Source: Escherichia coli
GTDB taxonomy: Bacteria; Pseudomonadota; Gammaproteobacteria; Enterobacterales; Enterobacteriaceae
Assembly: GCF_051903065.1 (NCBI RefSeq)
Contig: NZ_CP178438.1
DNA length: 64,000 nt
Reading direction: 5' to 3' (one strand)
Shown here: positions 13,773-46,688 of the stretch, piece after piece
How the letters are laid out: each line of letters starts with the position of its first letter
Position numbering within the stretch: the stretch's first letter is position 1
Made by a program: the position numbers and the translations under genes
Notes under the pieces: model-generated
The model's database searches: none
Told to the model about the DNA's origin: nothing
The model's input: only the letters and a program-made list of their open reading frames with translations

Positions 13773-16574
13773 ATGCAGAACAGCGCTTTGAAAGCCTGGT
13801 TGGACTCTTCTTACCTCTCTGGCGCAAACCAGAGCTGGATAGAACAGCTCTATGAAGACTTCTTAACCGATCCTGACTCGGTTGACGCTAACTGGCGTTC
13901 GACGTTCCAGCAGTTACCTGGTACGGGAGTCAAACCGGATCAATTCCACTCTCAAACGCGTGAATATTTCCGCCGCCTGGCGAAAGACGCTTCACGTTAC
14001 TCTTCAACGATCTCCGACCCTGACACCAATGTGAAGCAGGTTAAAGTCCTGCAGCTCATTAACGCATACCGCTTCCGTGGTCACCAGCATGCGAATCTCG
14101 ATCCGCTGGGACTGTGGCAGCAAGATAAAGTGGCCGATCTGGATCCGTCTTTCCACGATCTGACCGAAGCAGACTTCCAGGAGACCTTCAACGTCGGTTC
14201 ATTTGCCAGCGGCAAAGAAACCATGAAACTCGGCGAACTGCTGGAAGCCCTCAAGCAAACCTACTGCGGCCCGATTGGTGCCGAGTATATGCACATTACC
14301 AGCACCGAAGAAAAACGCTGGATCCAACAGCGTATCGAGTCTGGTCGCGCGACTTTCAATAGCGAAGAGAAAAAACGCTTCTTAAGCGAACTGACCGCCG
14401 CTGAAGGCCTTGAACGTTACCTCGGCGCAAAATTCCCTGGCGCAAAACGCTTCTCGCTGGAAGGCGGTGACGCGTTAATCCCGATGCTTAAAGAGATGAT
14501 TCGCCACGCTGGCAACAGCGGCACCCGCGAAGTGGTTCTCGGGATGGCGCACCGTGGTCGTCTGAACGTGCTGGTGAACGTGCTGGGTAAAAAACCGCAA
14601 GACTTGTTCGACGAGTTTGCCGGTAAACATAAAGAACACCTCGGCACGGGTGACGTGAAATACCACATGGGCTTCTCGTCTGACTTCCAGACCGATGGCG
14701 GCCTGGTGCACCTGGCGCTGGCGTTTAACCCGTCTCACCTTGAGATTGTAAGCCCGGTAGTTATCGGTTCTGTTCGTGCCCGTCTGGACAGACTTGATGA
14801 GCCGAGCAGCAACAAAGTGCTGCCAATCACCATCCACGGTGACGCCGCAGTGACCGGGCAGGGCGTGGTTCAGGAAACTCTGAACATGTCGAAAGCGCGT
14901 GGTTATGAAGTTGGCGGTACGGTACGTATCGTTATCAACAACCAGGTTGGCTTCACCACCTCTAACCCGCTGGATGCCCGTTCAACGCCGTACTGTACTG
15001 ATATCGGTAAGATGGTTCAGGCACCGATTTTCCACGTAAACGCGGACGATCCGGAAGCCGTTGCCTTTGTGACCCGTCTGGCGCTCGATTTCCGTAACAC
15101 CTTTAAACGTGATGTCTTCATCGACCTGGTGTGCTACCGCCGTCACGGCCACAACGAAGCCGACGAGCCGAGCGCAACCCAGCCGCTGATGTATCAGAAA
15201 ATCAAAAAACATCCGACGCCGCGCAAAATCTATGCTGACAAGCTGGAGCAGGAAAAAGTGGCGACGCTGGAAGATGCCACCGAGATGGTTAACCTGTACC
15301 GCGATGCGCTGGATGCTGGCGATTGCGTAGTGGCAGAGTGGCGTCCGATGAACATGCACTCTTTCACCTGGTCGCCGTATCTCAACCACGAATGGGACGA
15401 AGAGTACCCGAACAAAGTTGAGATGAAGCGCCTGCAGGAACTGGCTAAACGCATCAGTACGGTGCCGGAAGCGGTTGAAATGCAGTCTCGCGTTGCCAAG
15501 ATTTATGGCGATCGCCAGGCGATGGCTGCCGGTGAGAAACTGTTCGACTGGGGCGGCGCGGAAAACCTCGCTTACGCCACGCTGGTTGACGAAGGCATTC
15601 CGGTTCGCCTGTCGGGTGAAGACTCCGGTCGCGGTACCTTCTTCCACCGCCACGCGGTGATCCACAACCAGTCTAACGGTTCCACTTACACGCCGCTGCA
15701 ACACATCCATAACGGGCAGGGCGCGTTCCGCGTCTGGGACTCCGTACTGTCTGAAGAAGCCGTGCTGGCGTTTGAATACGGTTATGCCACCGCAGAACCA
15801 CGCACTCTGACCATCTGGGAAGCGCAGTTCGGTGACTTCGCCAACGGTGCGCAGGTGGTTATCGACCAGTTCATCTCCTCTGGCGAACAGAAATGGGGCC
15901 GGATGTGTGGTCTGGTGATGTTGCTGCCGCACGGTTACGAAGGGCAGGGGCCGGAGCACTCCTCCGCGCGTCTGGAACGTTATCTGCAACTTTGTGCTGA
16001 GCAAAACATGCAGGTGTGCGTACCGTCTACCCCGGCACAGGTTTACCACATGCTGCGTCGTCAGGCGCTGCGCGGGATGCGTCGTCCGCTGGTCGTGATG
16101 TCGCCGAAATCCCTGCTGCGTCATCCGCTGGCGGTTTCCAGCCTCGAAGAACTGGCGAACGGCACCTTCCTGCCAGCCATCGGTGAAATCGACGAGCTTG
16201 ATCCGAAGGGCGTGAAGCGCGTAGTGATGTGTTCTGGTAAGGTTTATTACGACCTGCTGGAACAGCGTCGTAAGAACAATCAACACGATGTCGCCATAGT
16301 GCGTATCGAGCAACTCTACCCGTTCCCGCATAAAGCGATGCAGGAAGTGTTGCAGCAGTTTGCTCACGTCAAGGATTTTGTCTGGTGCCAGGAAGAGCCG
16401 CTCAACCAGGGCGCATGGTACTGCAGCCAGCATCATTTCCGTGAAGTGATTCCGTTTGGGGCTTCTCTGCGTTATGCAGGCCGCCCGGCCTCCGCCTCTC
16501 CGGCGGTAGGGTATATGTCCGTTCACCAGAAACAGCAACAAGATCTGGTTAATGACGCGCTGAACGTCGAATAA
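13773..16574 (+). CDS. sucA: 2-oxoglutarate dehydrogenase E1 component
   Basis: 933-aa ORF, recognised SucA sequence. Confidence 0.97.
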
Positions 16575-16588
16575 ATAAAGGATACACA

Positions 16589-17806
16589 ATGAGTAGCGTA
16601 GATATTCTGGTCCCTGACCTGCCTGAATCCGTAGCCGATGCCACCGTCGCAACCTGGCATAAAAAACCCGGCGACGCAGTCGTACGTGATGAAGTGCTGG
16701 TAGAAATCGAAACTGACAAAGTGGTACTGGAAGTACCGGCATCAGCAGACGGCATTCTGGATGCGGTTCTGGAAGATGAAGGTACAACCGTAACGTCTCG
16801 TCAGATCCTTGGTCGCCTGCGTGAAGGCAACAGCGCCGGTAAAGAAACCAGCGCCAAATCTGAAGAGAAAGCGTCCACTCCGGCGCAACGCCAGCAGGCG
16901 TCTCTGGAAGAACAAAACAACGATGCGTTAAGCCCGGCGATCCGTCGCCTGCTGGCTGAACACAACCTCGACGCCAGCGCCATTAAAGGCACCGGTGTGG
17001 GTGGTCGTCTGACCCGTGAAGATGTGGAAAAACATCTGGCGAAAGCCCCGGCGAAAGAGTCTGCACCGGCAGCGGCTGCTTCGGCAGCGCAACCGGCTCT
17101 GGCTGCACGTAGCGAAAAACGTGTCCCGATGACTCGCCTGCGTAAGCGTGTGGCAGAGCGTCTGCTGGAAGCGAAAAACTCCACCGCCATGCTGACCACG
17201 TTCAACGAAGTCAACATGAAGCCGATTATGGATCTGCGTAAGCAGTACGGTGAAGCGTTTGAAAAACGCCACGGCATCCGTCTGGGCTTTATGTCCTTCT
17301 ACGTGAAAGCGGTGGTTGAAGCCCTGAAACGTTACCCGGAAGTGAATGCTTCTATCGACGGCGATGACGTGGTTTACCACAACTATTTCGACGTCAGCAT
17401 GGCGGTTTCTACGCCGCGCGGCCTGGTGACGCCGGTACTGCGTGATGTCGATACCCTCGGCATGGCAGACATCGAGAAGAAAATCAAAGAGCTGGCAGTT
17501 AAAGGCCGTGACGGCAAGCTGACGGTTGAAGATCTGACCGGTGGTAACTTCACCATCACCAACGGTGGTGTGTTCGGTTCCCTGATGTCTACGCCTATCA
17601 TCAACCCGCCGCAGAGCGCAATTCTGGGTATGCACGCTATCAAAGATCGTCCGATGGCTGTGAATGGTCAGGTTGAGATCCTGCCGATGATGTACCTGGC
17701 GCTGTCCTACGATCACCGTCTGATCGATGGTCGCGAATCCGTGGGCTTCCTGGTAACGATCAAAGAGTTGCTGGAAGATCCGACGCGTCTGCTGCTGGAC
17801 GTGTAG
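16589..17806 (+). CDS. sucB: Dihydrolipoyllysine-residue succinyltransferase (E2 of 2-oxoglutarate dehydrogenase)
   Basis: 405-aa ORF; lipoyl domain (ETDKVV), Ala/Pro-rich linker, catalytic domain. Confidence 0.97.
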
Positions 17807-18081: not shown

Positions 18082-19248
18082 ATGAACTTACATGAATATC
18101 AGGCAAAACAACTGTTTGCCCGCTATGGCTTACCAGCACCGGTGGGTTATGCCTGTACTACTCCGCGCGAAGCAGAAGAAGCCGCTTCAAAAATCGGTGC
18201 CGGTCCGTGGGTAGTGAAATGTCAGGTTCACGCTGGTGGCCGCGGTAAAGCGGGCGGTGTGAAAGTTGTAAACAGCAAAGAAGACATCCGTGCTTTTGCA
18301 GAAAACTGGCTGGGCAAGCGTCTGGTAACGTATCAAACAGATGCCAATGGCCAACCGGTTAACCAGATTCTGGTTGAAGCAGCGACCGATATCGCTAAAG
18401 AGCTGTATCTCGGTGCCGTTGTAGACCGTAGTTCCCGTCGCGTGGTCTTTATGGCCTCCACCGAAGGCGGCGTGGAAATCGAAAAAGTGGCGGAAGAAAC
18501 TCCGCACCTGATCCATAAAGTTGCGCTTGATCCGCTGACTGGCCCGATGCCGTATCAAGGACGCGAGCTGGCGTTCAAACTGGGTCTGGAAGGTAAACTG
18601 GTTCAGCAGTTCACCAAAATCTTCATGGGCCTGGCGACCATTTTCCTGGAGCGCGACCTGGCGTTGATCGAAATCAACCCGCTGGTCATCACCAAACAGG
18701 GCGATCTGATTTGCCTCGACGGCAAACTGGGCGCTGATGGCAACGCCCTGTTCCGCCAGCCTGATCTGCGCGAAATGCGTGACCAGTCGCAGGAAGATCC
18801 GCGTGAAGCACAGGCTGCACAGTGGGAACTGAACTACGTTGCGCTGGACGGTAACATCGGTTGTATGGTTAACGGCGCAGGTCTGGCGATGGGTACGATG
18901 GACATCGTTAAACTGCACGGCGGCGAACCAGCTAACTTCCTTGACGTTGGCGGCGGCGCAACCAAAGAACGTGTAACCGAAGCGTTCAAAATCATTCTCT
19001 CTGACGACAAAGTGAAAGCCGTTCTGGTTAACATCTTCGGCGGTATCGTTCGTTGCGACCTGATCGCTGACGGTATCATCGGCGCGGTAGCGGAAGTGGG
19101 TGTTAACGTACCGGTCGTGGTACGTCTGGAAGGTAACAACGCCGAACTCGGCGCGAAGAAACTGGCTGACAGCGGCCTGAATATTATTGCAGCAAAAGGT
19201 CTGACGGATGCAGCTCAGCAGGTTGTTGCCGCAGTGGAGGGGAAATAA
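18082..19248 (+). CDS. sucC: Succinyl-CoA synthetase beta subunit
   Basis: 388-aa ORF, recognised SucC sequence. Confidence 0.97.
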
Positions 19249-20117
19249 TGTCCATTTTAATTGATAAAAACACCAAGGTTATCTGCCAGGGCTTTACCGG
19301 TAGCCAGGGGACTTTCCACTCAGAACAGGCCATTGCATACGGCACTAAAATGGTTGGCGGCGTAACCCCAGGTAAAGGCGGTACTACCCACCTCGGCCTG
19401 CCGGTGTTCAACACCGTGCGTGAAGCTGTTGCTGCTACTGGCGCTACCGCTTCTGTTATCTACGTACCAGCACCGTTCTGCAAAGACTCCATTCTGGAAG
19501 CCATCGACGCAGGCATCAAACTGATTATCACCATCACTGAAGGCATCCCGACGCTGGATATGCTGACCGTGAAAGTGAAGCTGGATGAAGCAGGCGTTCG
19601 TATGATCGGCCCGAACTGCCCAGGCGTTATCACTCCGGGTGAATGCAAAATCGGTATCCAGCCTGGTCACATTCACAAACCGGGTAAAGTGGGTATCGTT
19701 TCCCGTTCCGGTACACTGACCTATGAAGCGGTTAAACAGACCACGGATTACGGTTTCGGTCAGTCGACCTGTGTCGGTATCGGCGGTGACCCGATCCCTG
19801 GCTCTAACTTTATCGACATTCTCGAAATGTTCGAAAAAGATCCGCAGACCGAAGCGATCGTGATGATCGGTGAGATCGGCGGTAGCGCTGAAGAAGAAGC
19901 GGCTGCGTACATCAAAGAGCACGTTACCAAGCCAGTTGTGGGCTACATCGCTGGTGTGACTGCGCCGAAAGGCAAACGTATGGGCCATGCGGGTGCCATC
20001 ATTGCCGGTGGGAAAGGGACTGCGGATGAGAAATTCGCTGCTCTGGAAGCCGCAGGCGTGAAAACCGTTCGCAGCCTGGCGGATATCGGTGAAGCACTGA
20101 AAACTGTTCTGAAATAA
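19248..20117 (+). CDS. sucD: Succinyl-CoA synthetase alpha subunit
   Basis: 289-aa ORF; start overlaps sucC stop. Confidence 0.97.
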
Positions 20118-20216
20118 ATATCTGTAATAAGAAATAGCCCTCGCCGCTTCCCTCTACAGGAATGGCGAAGGGCTGTCGGTTTCGACATGGTTGGCCATCG
20201 TATGATGGCCTTTTTT
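20118..20216 (+). ncRNA. sdhX: 3'UTR-derived small RNA SdhX (RybD) at the end of the sdh-suc transcript
   Basis: About 100 nt directly after the sucD stop with two stem-loops, the second a GC hairpin plus T-run terminator; position matches the described sucD 3'UTR sRNA. Confidence 0.5.
20193..20216 (+). terminator. Rho-independent terminator of sdhCDAB-sucABCD / sdhX
   Basis: Hairpin GGCCATC-GTAT-GATGGCC followed by TTTTTT. Confidence 0.75.
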
Positions 20217-20352
20217 ATGTCTTAAACGGTTAACCACGGTCGAAATCTGACTGCAGGCTTGACTGCATGACCACAACCACTGTGGATTGCCGCGACCGGT
20301 GATGCTGCCAACTTACTGATTTAGTGTATGATGGTGTTTTTGAGGTGCTCCA

Positions 20353-20628
20353 GTGGCTTCTGTTTCTATCAGCTGTCCCTCCTGTTCAGCTACTGACGGG
20401 GTGGTGCGTAACGGCAAAAGCACCGCCGGACATCAGCGCTATCTCTGCTCTCACTGCCGTAAAACATGGCAACTGCAGTTCACTTACACCGCTTCTCAAC
20501 CCGGTACGCACCAGAAAATCATTGATATGGCCATGAATGGCGTTGGATGCCGGGCAACAGCCCGCATTATGGGCGTTGGCCTCAACACGATTTTACGTCA
20601 CTTAAAAAACTCAGGCCGCAGTCGGTAA
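20353..20628 (+). CDS. insA: IS1 InsA (transposition inhibitor, N-terminal part of InsAB' transposase)
   Basis: 91-aa [25 protein letters not shown]... recognised IS1 InsA. Confidence 0.9.
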
Positions 20629-21050
20629 CCTCGCGCATACAGCCGGGCAGTGACGTCATCGTCTGCGCGGAAATGGACGAACAGTGGGGCTATGTCGGGG
20701 CTAAATCGCGCCAGCGCTGGCTGTTTTACGCGTATGACAGGCTCCGGAAGACGGTTGTTGCGCACGTATTCGGTGAACGCACTATGGCGACGCTGGGGCG
20801 TCTTATGAGCCTGCTGTCACCCTTTGACGTGGTGATATGGATGACGGATGGCTGGCCGCTGTATGAATCCCGCCTGAAGGGAAAGCTGCACGTAATCAGC
20901 AAGCGATATACGCAGCGAATTGAGCGGCATAACCTGAATCTGAGGCAGCACCTGGCACGGCTGGGACGGAAGTCGCTGTCGTTCTCAAAATCGGTGGAGC
21001 TGCATGACAAAGTCATCGGGCATTATCTGAACATAAAACACTATCAATAA
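20547..21050 (+). CDS. insB: IS1 InsB reading frame (expressed as InsAB' via -1 frameshift)
   Basis: Overlapping -1 frame ORF; slippery A-run (TTAAAAAACTC) at about 20603 in the insA/insB overlap. Confidence 0.85.
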
Positions 21051-21560
21051 GTTGGAGTCATTACCGCCGCGACCGACCGCAAGCCACGAATAAGAACGAC
21101 GGCGAATTTCGAATCGTTACCTGATGCACTGGCTTCCCAGCGTTTGACCGTAGCGTTAAGTAAATCAACAAAAGCGATGTTCACCGCTTTTCGTCAAGTC
21201 GTGCCATTTGTCAGCCAGGATCGGGTCTTTACCCCGGATATTGCAGCATCGCAAAAATTCTTAGATGGATATGCTATAAATCAAAAATAAAATCTTTGTT
21301 GATTGTTTATCATAATATCCACAGATATGATAAATGATATCAATTTAATAATTTTCACTTAATGTGATTCCGGATAATTCGAAAGGCGCTGTGCTTTTCG
21401 GATTATTATTATCTGATTAAGATATTTGTCACGCCAGCCTTACTGGTTTATAAATGTCAATCATGATTCTTATAAATTATTTATTGCTGCTTTGGTTACC
21501 ATTACTTCGTAATAAGTAATGTATTTTTGATGGTTTAAACTATTTTTAAGGGACGGCATT

Positions 21561-22153
21561 ATGCGAGGGAAAATACCTAAAACGGAACTGCTGGTGACTT
21601 TTGAGGTCGTCGCACGTCATGAAAGTTATACCAGAGCGGCAGAGGAGTTAGCGTTAACCCAAAGTGCAGTATTCAGACAAGTAAGTGCGCTGGAGGAATT
21701 TTTACGTACTCCGTTATTTTCACACTCTAAAAAACGCATTTTTCTTAATGATACAGGGAAGTATTACCTGGGGATAGTAAAAGAAACATTAAATAAGCTG
21801 GAACGCGATACCAATACCATTATGACCTGGCAGCCTACGGTTCAGGTTATTGAACTTGCCGTTAATCCTACTTTTAGTACCCACTGGTTGATCCCAAATT
21901 TACATGAATTCACAAAGTTACATCCCGATATTATTGTTAATATTCATTCTTTAGCTAATAACGGCGATTTTCTTAATCGGGAGTACGATGCTGTCATTAT
22001 GCGCGAAAATTTTTGCGCGCCCTGGGCGGAAGTAGAATATCTCTTTGATGAGGAGATTTTGCCGGTATGCAGCGGCAGTTTGCTTGCAATGTCCGATCAA
22101 AAGCTGTCAGTGGCAGAACTGCTTACTGAGTTACCGCTTCTGCATCAAAGCAC
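21561..22153 (+). pseudogene. LysR-family transcriptional regulator gene, 3'-truncated by IS903-type element
   Basis: N-terminal LysR-type HTH (ESYTRAAEELALTQSAVFRQVSALEE) and start of substrate-binding domain; frame runs straight into the IS inverted repeat at 22154; about 200 codons of an expected roughly 300. Confidence 0.7.
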
Positions 22154-23210
22154 GGCTTTGTTGAATAAATCAGATTTCGGGTAAGTCTCCCCCGTAGCGG
22201 GTTGTGTTTTCAGGCAATACGCACGCTTTCAGGCATACCTGCTTTCGTCATTTTGTTCAGCGCTCGTACCAGGGCCATAGCCTCTGCAACCTGACCATCG
22301 TAGTCACGCAGTGTCAGTGAACCCCCGAACAGCTGTTTTACCCGGTACATCGCCGTTTCCGCTATCGAGCGACGGTTGTAATCTGTTGTCCATTTCCACC
22401 GCGCATTACTCCCGGTCATTCGCTGATTAGCCACTGCACGGTTACGGTCTGCATATTCACCGGGCCAGTAACCCGCACCTTTTCGGGGAGGGATAAGCGC
22501 GCTGATTTTCTTACGCCGCAGTTCATCGTGACATAGCCGGGTATCGTAAGCGCCATCGGCGGCGGCTGACCTGATTTTCCGGTGGGTTTGCCGGATTAAC
22601 CCGGGGAAGGCCTCTGAGTCCGTAACGTTGTTCAGCGACAGGTCAGCGCAGATGATTTCATGTGTTTTACTGTCAACGGCGAGATGCAGCTTACGCCAGA
22701 TACGGCGGCGTTCCTGGCCATGCTTTTTGACTTTCCACTCGCCTTCACCGAAGACCTTCAGCCCGGTGGAATCAATTACCAGGTGTGCGATTTCACCCCG
22801 GGTGGGCGTTTTGAAACTGACATTAACCGACTTTGCCCGCCTGCTGACACAGCTGTAATCCGGGCAGCGTAGCGGAACGTTCATCAGAGAAAAAATGGAA
22901 TCAATAAAGCCCTGCGCAGCGCGCAGGGTCAGCCTGAATACGCGTTTAATGACCAGCACAGTCGTGATGGCAAGGTCAGAATAGCGCTGAGGTCTGCCTC
23001 GTGAAGAAGGTGTTGCTGACTCATACCAGGCCTGAATAGCTTCATCATCCAGCCAGAAAGTTATGGAGCCACGGTTGATGAGGGCTTTATTGTAGGTGGG
23101 CCAGTTGGTGATTTTGAACTTTTGCTTTGCCACGGAACGGTCTGCGTTGTCGGGAAGATACGTGATCTGATCCTTCAACTCAGCAAAAGTTCGATTTATT
23201 CAACAAAGCC
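22154..23210 (-). mobile_element. IS903-type insertion sequence (IS5 family), 1057 bp, no target-site duplication
   Basis: 18-bp terminal inverted repeats GGCTTTGTTGAATAAATC at both ends; single transposase ORF; flanks TCAAAGCAC vs ATTTATCAG do not match. Confidence 0.85.
22210..23133 (-). CDS. IS903-type transposase (DDE, IS5 family)
   Basis: ORF ending ...KAGMPESVRIA, recognised as IS903 transposase; start placed at the GTG giving 307 aa (longest ORF extends to 23178). Confidence 0.85.
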   Translation of the reverse strand: MAKQKFKITNWPTYNKALINRGSITFWLDDEAIQAWYESATPSSRGRPQRYSDLAITTVLVIKRVFRLTLRAAQGFIDSIFSLMNVPLRCPDYSCVSRRAKSVNVSFKTPTRGEIAHLVIDSTGLKVFGEGEWKVKKHGQERRRIWRKLHLAVDSKTHEIICADLSLNNVTDSEAFPGLIRQTHRKIRSAAADGAYDTRLCHDELRRKKISALIPPRKGAGYWPGEYADRNRAVANQRMTGSNARWKWTTDYNRRSIAETAMYRVKQLFGGSLTLRDYDGQVAEAMALVRALNKMTKAGMPESVRIA

Positions 23211-23581
23211 ATTTATCAGGCGAAAGTGGCCTCTGTTCACTCAGAAACAATCACTCCCGGTAAGTCATACCTGTTTCATCGATACATTTAAGTGATTATT
23301 ACTAATGAAACAATAACATAACGGGCTTACGGTCGGTGCTCATAAAGGCAACAATCAATTAACTTTGATAAAAATATGTTATGTAAAATAGCAACAAATT
23401 GGCTACTCTAATCAATTGGTATTATAAAAAGTTGATTGGGCGGTTCTGTTAAATAAAACACTGGTTTTTTATCTATACCTTTTCATTGTAATAATTGTGT
23501 TGCATAAATATTTCACAATAAATTAACAATAAAATCACCAATGATCTATGGTTTATACATAATTAACATATTTGGTTGGTT

Positions 23582-23595
23582 TTGATATAAATCAA
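23582..23595. promoter_or_regulatory. FNR-consensus box in cydA upstream regulatory region
   Basis: Perfect TTGAT-N4-ATCAA (TTGATATAAATCAA) about 340 bp upstream of cydA in a long AT-rich leader. Confidence 0.5.
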
Positions 23596-23932
23596 TTTTT
23601 AATTCTTGAAAAAAATCTGCAAAACACGATAAATTGTCGTAGATCAAATTGGTGAGATCGTGACAATTTCGCTATAAATTGATCACTGTCGAAAAATGCA
23701 AATTTGCTCAATAAAAACCTGTTTATTGTAAGGATTTTGCGGCGTAATATAATTACGGGATCAATTTGGTTTATTCATTAACATATTTGTAACTTTTTTA
23801 TCATTGTCTTTTCCTCTTTTGATGAAATGGCAACGATAGAGGCGAGCAAATAATTTTGTATTGGGGCATGCGTGTGACCCTTTCTAACGGGGTTCACTCT
23901 CGGAGTCTTCATGCGATGAGCAAGGAGTCATG

Positions 23933-25501
23933 ATGTTAGATATAGTCGAACTGTCGCGCTTACAGTTTGCCTTGACCGCGATGTACCACTTCCTTTTTGT
24001 GCCACTGACGCTCGGTATGGCGTTCCTGCTGGCCATTATGGAAACGGTCTACGTCCTTTCCGGCAAACAGATTTATAAAGATATGACCAAGTTCTGGGGC
24101 AAGTTGTTTGGTATTAACTTTGCTCTGGGTGTGGCTACCGGTCTGACCATGGAGTTCCAGTTCGGGACTAACTGGTCTTACTATTCCCACTATGTAGGGG
24201 ATATCTTCGGTGCGCCGCTGGCAATCGAAGGTCTGATGGCCTTCTTCCTCGAATCCACCTTTGTAGGTCTGTTCTTCTTCGGTTGGGATCGTCTGGGTAA
24301 AGTTCAGCATATGTGTGTCACCTGGCTGGTGGCGCTCGGTTCAAACCTGTCCGCACTGTGGATTCTGGTTGCGAACGGCTGGATGCAAAACCCAATCGCG
24401 TCCGATTTCAACTTTGAAACTATGCGTATGGAGATGGTGAGCTTCTCCGAGCTGGTGCTTAACCCGGTTGCTCAGGTGAAATTCGTTCACACTGTAGCGT
24501 CTGGTTATGTGACTGGCGCGATGTTCATCCTCGGTATCAGCGCATGGTATATGCTGAAAGGTCGTGACTTCGCCTTCGCTAAACGCTCCTTTGCTATCGC
24601 TGCCAGCTTCGGTATGGCTGCCGTTCTGTCTGTTATTGTTCTGGGTGATGAATCTGGTTACGAAATGGGCGACGTGCAGAAAACCAAACTGGCTGCTATT
24701 GAAGCTGAGTGGGAAACGCAACCTGCGCCTGCTGCCTTTACTCTGTTCGGCATTCCTGATCAGGAAGAGGAGACGAACAAATTTGCGATCCAGATCCCTT
24801 ACGCGCTGGGCATCATTGCAACGCGTTCCGTGGATACTCCAGTTATCGGCCTGAAAGAACTGATGGTGCAGCATGAAGAACGCATTCGTAACGGGATGAA
24901 GGCGTACTCTCTGCTCGAGCAACTGCGTTCTGGTTCTACCGACCAGGCGGTTCGTGACCAGTTCAATAGCATGAAGAAAGACCTCGGTTACGGTCTGCTG
25001 CTGAAACGCTATACGCCAAACGTGGCTGATGCGACTGAAGCTCAGATTCAACAGGCAACCAAAGACTCCATCCCGCGTGTAGCGCCGCTGTACTTTGCGT
25101 TCCGTATCATGGTGGCGTGTGGCTTCCTGCTGCTGGCAATCATCGCGCTCTCTTTCTGGAGTGTCATCCGCAACCGCATTGGCGAGAAAAAATGGCTCCT
25201 GCGCGCCGCGCTGTACGGTATTCCGCTGCCGTGGATTGCTGTAGAAGCGGGCTGGTTCGTGGCTGAATATGGCCGCCAACCGTGGGCTATCGGTGAAGTG
25301 CTGCCGACAGCTGTGGCGAACTCGTCACTGACCGCAGGCGATCTCATCTTCTCAATGGTGCTGATTTGCGGCCTGTATACCCTGTTCCTGGTGGCAGAAT
25401 TGTTCTTAATGTTCAAGTTTGCACGCCTCGGCCCAAGCAGCCTGAAAACCGGTCGCTATCACTTTGAGCAGTCTTCCACGACTACTCAGCCGGCACGCTA
25501 A
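23933..25501 (+). CDS. cydA: Cytochrome bd-I ubiquinol oxidase subunit I
   Basis: Recognised CydA sequence; start placed at second Met ([12 protein letters not shown]). Confidence 0.97.
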
Positions 25502-33042: not shown

Positions 33043-33118
33043 GGGTCGTTAGCTCAGTTGGTAGAGCAGTTGACTTTTAATCAATTGGTCGCAGGTTCGA
33101 ATCCTGCACGACCCACCA
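33043..33118 (+). tRNA. lysT: tRNA-Lys (anticodon UUU)
   Basis: 76 nt, GGGTCGTTAGCTCAGTTGGTAGAGC...CUUUUAAUC anticodon loop...CACCA. Confidence 0.95.
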
Positions 33119-33153
33119 CTAACCTAGTTAGTTGTAGTATCCAGCGTAGTATC

Positions 33154-33229
33154 GGGTGATTAGCTCAGCTGGGAGAGCACCTCCCTTACAAGGAGGGGGT
33201 CGGCGGTTCGATCCCGTCATCACCCACCA
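33154..33229 (+). tRNA. valT: tRNA-Val (anticodon UAC)
   Basis: 76 nt, GGGTGATTAGCTCAGCTGGGAGAGC...CUUACAAGG anticodon loop...CACCA. Confidence 0.95.
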
Positions 33230-33231
33230 CC

Positions 33232-33307
33232 GGGTCGTTAGCTCAGTTGGTAGAGCAGTTGACTTTTAATCAATTGGTCGCAGGTTCGAATCCTGCACGA
33301 CCCACCA
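33232..33307 (+). tRNA. lysW: tRNA-Lys (UUU)
   Basis: Identical copy of the tRNA-Lys sequence. Confidence 0.95.
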
Positions 33308-33358
33308 CTAATTACGGTGGGTTCGGTGGAAGTAGTTTGTAGTATCCAGCGCAGTATC

Positions 33359-33434
33359 GGGTGATTAGCTCAGCTGGGAGAGCACCTCCCTTACAAGGAG
33401 GGGGTCGGCGGTTCGATCCCGTCATCACCCACCA
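33359..33434 (+). tRNA. valZ: tRNA-Val (UAC)
   Basis: Identical copy of the tRNA-Val sequence. Confidence 0.95.
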
Positions 33435-33437
33435 CTC

Positions 33438-33513
33438 GGGTCGTTAGCTCAGTTGGTAGAGCAGTTGACTTTTAATCAATTGGTCGCAGGTTCGAATCCT
33501 GCACGACCCACCA
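33438..33513 (+). tRNA. lysY: tRNA-Lys (UUU)
   Basis: Identical copy of the tRNA-Lys sequence. Confidence 0.95.
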
Positions 33514-33593
33514 ATTTTAACATCAAACTCAGATGTTAAGCGTGAAGGATAACGTTGCGCCAGCAACGGCCCGTAGGGCGAGCGAAGCGAGTC

Positions 33594-33611
33594 ATCCTGC
33601 ACGACCCACCA
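33594..33611 (+). other. Orphan 18-nt copy of the tRNA-Lys 3' end (ATCCTGCACGACCCACCA) in the lysY-lysZ spacer
   Basis: Exact match to the last 18 nt of the tRNA-Lys genes with no upstream tRNA body. Confidence 0.6.
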
Positions 33612-33659
33612 ATCTTAAAGATTGGCCCCGAGTAAAAATCTTTCAGGTAACACCCGTAT

Positions 33660-33735
33660 GGGTCGTTAGCTCAGTTGGTAGAGCAGTTGACTTTTAATCA
33701 ATTGGTCGCAGGTTCGAATCCTGCACGACCCACCA
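33660..33735 (+). tRNA. lysZ: tRNA-Lys (UUU)
   Basis: Identical copy of the tRNA-Lys sequence. Confidence 0.95.
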
Positions 33736-33768
33736 TCCTGAATGATTAAAGCAGCATAATCCCGCAAG

Positions 33769-33844
33769 GGGTCGTTAGCTCAGTTGGTAGAGCAGTTGAC
33801 TTTTAATCAATTGGTCGCAGGTTCGAATCCTGCACGACCCACCA
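33769..33844 (+). tRNA. lysQ: tRNA-Lys (UUU)
   Basis: Identical copy of the tRNA-Lys sequence. Confidence 0.95.
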
Positions 33845-33850
33845 ATGTAA

Positions 33851-45899: not shown

Positions 45900-46688
45900 T
45901 TAGCAAAGCGTGGCGATAATCACGCTGTCGGCGTTGAAGTAAGCCTTGACATTCTGCCCTTGTTCAAGAGAAGCTGCTTCATTTACCGGCACCGTGGCGC
46001 ACAAGGTTTGCCCGTCAGGTAACGCCATTAACACTTCGCACTGTTCTGCGCCGCGCTCTATATGGCGAATAATGCCCGGCAATTGGTTGTCGGCACTCTG
46101 GGCTACAGCGTCATCCTGGGTAATGTTCACCCACGGCGCTTTCAGCAGAATCAACACTTCTTTGCCTTCATCCAGCCCCAGACGCGCACCGCTTTGTGCG
46201 GTAATCGCGGCTTTCAGGCGCGTTTTACCGTCTGCCAGTAACACGTCTACATGTTGTTGAACATCATCATTATTACGAGCGGTGATCGTACCGAACCACT
46301 GGTTACGGGCGCTGGTCTGCAGTGAAAAACGTGAGATGGCTGCCAGCAGACTATTGAGTGGCAGGGCGTCGTCATCACTTAATACATCAAAGGCTTTTTG
46401 CTGGATCTGGGCGAGCAGATCGTAAAGCTGAATCAGTCGTTGGCCATAGCGAGTCAGCATCGCGCCGCCGCCGCCTTTTCCGCCTGTTGCGCGCTCAACC
46501 AGCGTATGCTCGCTTAACTGATTCATTTCGTTAATGGCATCCCAGGCGCTTTTATAGCTGATACCGGCATCTTTCGCCCCCTGGCTGATGGAACCGGAAA
46601 GCGCAATATGTTTTAGTAGTGAAATGCGGCGTGGGTCGGCAAAGAGCTTTTGTTGAAGCTTAAGGGTGAGAAGGATTTCGGCCTGCAT
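45900..46688 (-). CDS. modE: Molybdate-responsive transcriptional regulator ModE
   Basis: 262-aa ORF, recognised ModE sequence. Confidence 0.95.
   Translation of the reverse strand: MQAEILLTLKLQQKLFADPRRISLLKHIALSGSISQGAKDAGISYKSAWDAINEMNQLSEHTLVERATGGKGGGGAMLTRYGQRLIQLYDLLAQIQQKAFDVLSDDDALPLNSLLAAISRFSLQTSARNQWFGTITARNNDDVQQHVDVLLADGKTRLKAAITAQSGARLGLDEGKEVLILLKAPWVNITQDDAVAQSADNQLPGIIRHIERGAEQCEVLMALPDGQTLCATVPVNEAASLEQGQNVKAYFNADSVIIATLC

Follow-up and report, generated by a model that had tools for sequence, protein, structure and literature searches.

Immediately after sucD, within a window of 64,000 nucleotides of an Escherichia coli chromosome (the whole stretch of DNA analysed here, from NZ_CP178438.1), there is a copy of the insertion sequence IS1. 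The question raised by this locus is how the element came to lie there, whether by one simple transposition or as part of some larger event, and whether its presence matters to the genes on either side. With high confidence, a simple, clone-specific transposition of IS1 into decayed DNA after sucD explains the arrangement. IS1 is a known element, seen here with its known behaviour at a clone-specific site, and the insertion is an ordinary one of an already known kind.

The element is exactly 768 bp long and begins 180 nt downstream of the stop codon of sucD, which ends at 20117 (other coordinates are collected in Table 1). It starts with GGTGATGCTGCC... (left, 20298) and finishes with ...GGAGTCATTACC (right, 21065). 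Each end is abutted by the 9-mer GCCGCGACC, the two copies being identical and so forming perfect direct repeats. At the left junction GGATTGCCGCGACC is followed by GGTGATGCTGCC, and at the right junction GGAGTCATTACC is followed by GCCGCGACCGACCGC, the boundary between flank and IS1 falling between the two members of each pair. What seems to be a tenth base of the repeat, a G, is on the left side the first base of IS1 itself. By our own arithmetic, an exact 9-mer would be expected at two positions set by the ends of the element with a probability of about 4^-9, or 4e-6. A target duplication of 9 bp is the size classically described for IS1, and the other hallmarks of the family, a length of ~768 bp and imperfect inverted repeats of ~23 bp (GGTGATG... 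/ ...CATTACC), are likewise found. The arms are returned as 24 nt at 79% by an inverted-repeat search, one flanking base pairing by chance. The initial annotation, which was made from the sequence alone, had described an IS1 with both terminal inverted repeats and identical flanking 9-mers, and our reading of the sequence bears this out; the interval that it gave (20289–21073) covers the insertion and repeats as described, except that its right end is one base short of the true limit at 21074. As the window contains no second copy of IS1, the element after sucD does not here belong to a composite transposon.

Table 1. Features at and around the IS1 insertion downstream of sucD, in window coordinates.
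Feature	Coordinates	Strand	Basis or remark
sdhX (3'UTR-derived sRNA of sucD) with intrinsic terminator	20118–20218	+	Collinear with K-12 sdhX (b4764), 101 nt
Left part of rtcB-family remnants, with target site	20229–20297	-	blastn against the intact rtcB-family gene of strain 2022H048
Left copy of 9-bp target-site duplication, GCCGCGACC	20289–20297		Abuts IS1; single copy in empty allele
Complete IS1, IS1A type	20298–21065	+	insA to insB' oriented as sucD
IS1 left terminal inverted repeat (IRL), 23 bp	20298–20320	+	Pairs with IRR at 18/23 positions
insA, 91 aa, zinc ribbon and helix-turn-helix	20353–20628	+	Pfam PF03811 (1.3e-21), PF12759 (4.7e-31)
insB' frame, DDE catalytic domain	20547–21050	+	Pfam PF03400 DDE_Tnp_IS1, 2.3e-78, full profile 1–131
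A6C motif (AAAAAAC), programmed -1 frameshift giving InsAB'	20604–20610	+	Read from sequence
IS1 right terminal inverted repeat (IRR), 23 bp	21043–21065	-	Pairs with IRL
Right copy of 9-bp target-site duplication, GCCGCGACC	21066–21074		Abuts IS1
Rest of rtcB remnant (to ~21093), then two HAL/PAL-family ammonia-lyase fragments (21097–21158, 21153–21290)	21075–21290	+	
LysR-family regulator gene, pseudogene, 3' end cut off by IS903B	21561–22153	+	Intact 301-aa version in ECNB21-M121
IS903B, 1057 bp, without target duplication	22154–23210	-	Separate event

The two reading frames of the element overlap at the slippery stretch TTAAAAAAC (20602–20610), and an in-silico -1 fusion at the A6C motif gives an open InsAB' frame of 232 amino acids. 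Compared to the IS1A of K-12, 767 of the 768 bases match, and the sole difference (G for T at IS1 position 444) changes a Ser of InsB' to Arg. The identical sequence in strain 23CRST027, one of two close relatives considered below, is annotated by PGAP as an 'IS1-like element IS1A family transposase' with the remark 'programmed frameshift'. The copy carries every sequence feature by which IS1 is defined, namely the zinc-ribbon/HTH insA, the DDE insB', the A6C motif, the inverted repeats, the duplication and near-identity to the reference isoform. All the sequence requirements for a mobile IS1 are intact, and the copy after sucD is probably still capable of moving. The same IS1 in the second relative, 23CRST031, has GGG for GGGG at about IS1 positions 498–501 (window 20795–20798) and is annotated as a frameshifted transposase; this 1-nt deletion in a run of G either truly inactivates the copy or is an error of sequencing in a homopolymer.

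The uninterrupted form of the site is present in other strains. In ECNB21-M121 the flanks join exactly around a single GCCGCGACC, with 100% identity on both sides: window positions 19001–20298 correspond to positions 15102–16399 of its homologous locus (L006), and 21066–22153 to 16390–17477, the two matches overlapping by precisely the 9-mer. When the reconstructed uninterrupted site (a query of 283 nt) was searched for in 5,426 complete E. coli genomes, it was found in 833, O157:H7 EDL933 among them. The filled site is present in only two of the 5,426, 23CRST027 and 23CRST031, which are sister isolates from human faeces collected in Santo Domingo, Ecuador. The window is not byte-identical to either of these RefSeq relatives, 23CRST027 differing from it by one SNP at window position 46281 (G vs T). 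An empty allele with a single 9-mer had been named beforehand as the check on a simple insertion with an intact 9-bp duplication, which alleles lacking the 9-mer, or flanks that fail to join, would have overturned; it is just this empty allele that ECNB21-M121 and the 833 genomes carry, their flanks joining without loss. Because the empty allele is contiguous, and the filled site is confined to two sister isolates, the insertion is both simple and recent. The initial annotation had taken it to be recent or stable, and the perfect repeats and intact transposase frame agree with a recent event. The insertion is private to one clone, and nothing was lost at the site. The genome of the host clone is rich in IS1, with 37 places in the chromosome matching an IS1 query, against a median of 11 per genome.

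Upstream of the element, the terminator that forms the 3' end of SdhX (stem at 20193–20210, followed by a T-run) is intact, ~80 nt from IS1. An Rfam scan of 19800–24000 at E <= 0.1 gives no match, sdhX included. The sRNA appears to be undetectable with the Rfam library used, and it was therefore placed by collinearity with the K-12 annotation. A scan for promoters and terminators returned four promoter-like matches, compared to 2.8 expected in shuffled sequence; as such matches are no more frequent than in the shuffled sequence, no promoter inference is drawn from them.

The 660 bp between this terminator and the start of the LysR gene are a patchwork of gene remnants. Two of them correspond to internal pieces of an rtcB-family gene, one at 20229–20251 (23 nt, 100%) and the other at 20260–20297, continuing at 21075–21093 on the far side of IS1 (57 nt, 89%). 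The 9-bp target is located within the second of these, and fragments of a HAL-type ammonia-lyase gene follow. Both the rtcB-family and HAL genes are intact in strain 2022H048, where the gene order is sucD, mngR, mngA, mngB, rtcB, hutU, permease, hutD, hutI, hutG, HAL, LysR and cobO onward. The 'intergenic' DNA between sucD and LysR is a mosaic of deletion scars. The full array kept by 2022H048 suggests that the ancestral interval was longer, and that the arrangements of K-12 and of the O157 type arose from it by different deletions. All open reading frames across the empty site are 61 aa or shorter (<=61 aa). In some strains PGAP calls an 84-aa 'hypothetical protein' across this site, which was considered as a functional target and rejected: it is the tail of a decayed HAL gene, and its codon 4 is a TGA in this lineage. 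A Pfam search with this protein gives no match, and the only sequences homologous to it are fragments from E. coli/Escherichia that bear the name of histidine or aromatic ammonia-lyase. Given that the target lies in decayed rtcB/HAL remnants, IS1 landed in dead DNA. IS1 is known to prefer an A+T-rich context, whereas the target and its surroundings here have a G+C content of ~53%.

One part of the initial annotation does not hold, the placing of the insertion where K-12 has the promoter and start of mngR. A comparison with the K-12 sucC-cydA interval gives no match for the IS1 flanks, either in the 5' region of mngR or in the mngR-mngA intergenic region. The mngR gene of K-12 lies on the other strand and converges on sucD, with its stop codon 3 nt past sdhX, so that the part proximal to sucD is the 3' end of the gene, while the start and promoter are ~830–930 nt away. 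Homology of the window to K-12 ends at 20224, just past the sdhX/sucD terminator, and picks up again at 23557, upstream of cydA. IS1 did not displace mngR, the overlap with the mngR interval being one of distance alone. The mismatch cautions against carrying K-12 map positions over to strains with a different accessory segment.

In strains with an empty site, sucD is followed by an island of ~15 kb, which is the glutamate-fermentation (methylaspartate/FumD) cluster of E. coli O157:H7 (PMC4682846), and the DNA on either side of IS1 belongs to the left edge of this island. About 1.09 kb downstream of IS1, 13.5 kb of this island (ECNB21-M121 locus L006, 17478–31011) has been replaced by IS903B. 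The flanks of the latter, ...TCAAAGCAC and ATTTATCAG..., are without a 9-bp duplication, and it directly abuts the region upstream of cydA. The genes lost with the 13.5 kb are cobO, a fumD-like fumarase, a symporter, genes for DUF4387 and AtuA-like proteins, methylaspartate ammonia-lyase, glmE/L/S and two hypotheticals, and the glutamate-fermentation island is lost from this clone. The LysR/IS903B junction is present only in 23CRST027 and 23CRST031, the same two genomes that have the filled IS1 site, and no genome was found with the IS1 insertion but not the IS903B deletion, or the reverse. The earlier statement that the insertion had no associated rearrangement is thus true of IS1 itself but cannot be extended to the locus, given the deletion nearby. 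In ECNB21-M121, a copy of IS903B is found elsewhere in the island, in the opposite orientation. The right end of IS903B carries a 47-bp tandem duplication in 23CRST027 (locus L007, 23164–23257) and 23CRST031 (L012) that is absent from the window (23164–23210), and this repeat may be genuine variation (an additional IS end) or may stem from a difference in assembly. Further along the window, downstream of cpoB at ~33043–33846, seven tRNA genes (Lys, Val, Lys, Val, Lys, Lys, Lys) form an array with internal repeats, which is the normal lysT-valT-lysW region.

The most straightforward history of the locus is that one intact IS1, of the IS1A type, transposed into the 9-bp target GCCGCGACC, 171–180 nt downstream of sucD, at a recent point in the ancestry of one E. 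coli clone (23CRST027/23CRST031-like). In IS1 transposition, InsAB' makes cuts staggered by 9 bp and joins the IS ends to them, and repair of the gaps yields the duplication. From this established biology we infer the same cut-and-repair mechanism here: a staggered 9-bp cut followed by gap repair would have produced the flanking direct repeats, with no loss or rearrangement at the site. The target was non-functional DNA between the sdhX/sucD terminator and the LysR gene of the island. The insertion is very likely to be selectively neutral, given that it leaves the terminator intact and that this clone has only a pseudogene of the LysR regulator.

In an adaptive role, the element would alter the expression of its neighbours, for example by blocking read-through from the highly expressed sdh-suc operon into the island, or by driving LysR from an outward or hybrid promoter. 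The element does have the orientation of sucD and the LysR gene, IS elements are well known to be polar or to create promoters, and there are further IS1 events near sucD in strains FDAARGOS_944 and AHB10. Nevertheless, such a role is barely credible, as a strong intrinsic terminator already stands ~80 nt upstream, the LysR gene is cut short and the genes presumably under its control are deleted in the clone, the LysR start retains ~496 bp of its native upstream DNA, only two sister genomes have the allele, and three independent IS1 events among 5,426 genomes, in a dispensable interval, are within rough chance expectation. Other routes to the same structure can be imagined. The IS1 and its 9-bp repeats might be the remnant of a replicative cointegration, for example with a transient IS1-bearing plasmid, that was resolved by recombination between IS1 copies; IS1 is known to make both simple insertions and cointegrates, resolution leaves exactly the structure seen, and the genome is rich in the element. 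As there is no plasmid-derived sequence at the site, this is very unlikely, and since its end product is the same as that of a simple insertion, the distinction is without consequence here. Import of the filled allele by recombination would also give the same final structure as a direct simple insertion. Misplacement of the element by the assembly, through repeat collapse or a misjoin, has next to no probability. Although IS copies are a classic source of misassembly, and the window disagrees with its two RefSeq relatives over the 47-bp repeat at the nearby end of IS903B, both unique junctions of IS1 are the same in the window as in two complete genomes assembled independently of each other, and a perfect 9-bp duplication of a sequence present once in the empty allele is what the biochemistry of transposition is expected to leave, not a by-product of assembly. 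Simple transposition in a recent ancestor of the clone is the reading retained here.

An insertion of this kind, in non-coding DNA of one clone, carries very little biological weight. It could serve as a clonal marker for the 23CRST027/031 lineage, and is a clean example of a filled and empty site, while the locus as a whole illustrates how the sucD-cydA interval of E. coli has been remodelled by successive deletions and IS events. Searches of the literature on IS1 in connection with sucD or sdhX found nothing specific to this site, and a search on IS1 target duplications returned general IS background only.

The same stretch of chromosome has received IS1 in two other forms. FDAARGOS_944 (NZ_CP065613.1; locus L004, 3290–4057) has a simple insertion in the 3' region of sucD, inside sdhX and ~106 bp upstream of the present one, whose orientation it shares; it has a 9-bp duplication of its own, TCGACATGG. 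It differs from the present copy in being a divergent variant (91% identical) that begins GGTAATGCTGCC, and its host has mngR as in K-12. It parts most of SdhX from its terminator hairpin, so that a regulatory phenotype is possible, in contrast to the insertion at the present site. AHB10 (NZ_OZ546984.1; locus L003, 3705–4472) carries an IS1B in the sucD-cydA interval that is 99.1% identical to the present copy and has the same orientation, but no target duplication borders it (flanks ...GTGCTGGC and CTGGTTTT...), and it runs straight into the region upstream of cydA. The whole accessory interval has here been deleted in association with IS1, a rearranged outcome that is absent at the present copy. 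Taken together, three independent IS1 events (at this site, inside sdhX, and the deletion to cydA) in 5,426 genomes are not clearly above chance. It is rather improbable that the few hundred bases past the sdhX/sucD terminator are a preferred zone of IS1 landing and turnover, and that IS1/IS903B activity is the main driver of the strain-to-strain mosaic of the sucD-cydA interval, in which mngRAB, rtcB, hut-like genes or the methylaspartate island are found depending on the strain.

The downstream side of the locus corresponds to the O157:H7 cluster (PMC4682846), in which the gene labelled 'LTTR', next to CobA, FumD and GltP, is the counterpart of the LysR gene found downstream of IS1. The clone differs from O157:H7 in that IS903B stands in place of 13.5 kb of the cluster and the LTTR gene is reduced to its 5' two-thirds. 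The element itself corresponds to the IS1A of K-12 (NC_000913.3, 19796–20563; insA1/insB1), with which it shares the length of 768 bp, the terminal repeats and the layout of insA, A6C motif and insB'. It is distinguished from that copy by the T to G change at position 444 and by its different, clone-specific chromosomal site.
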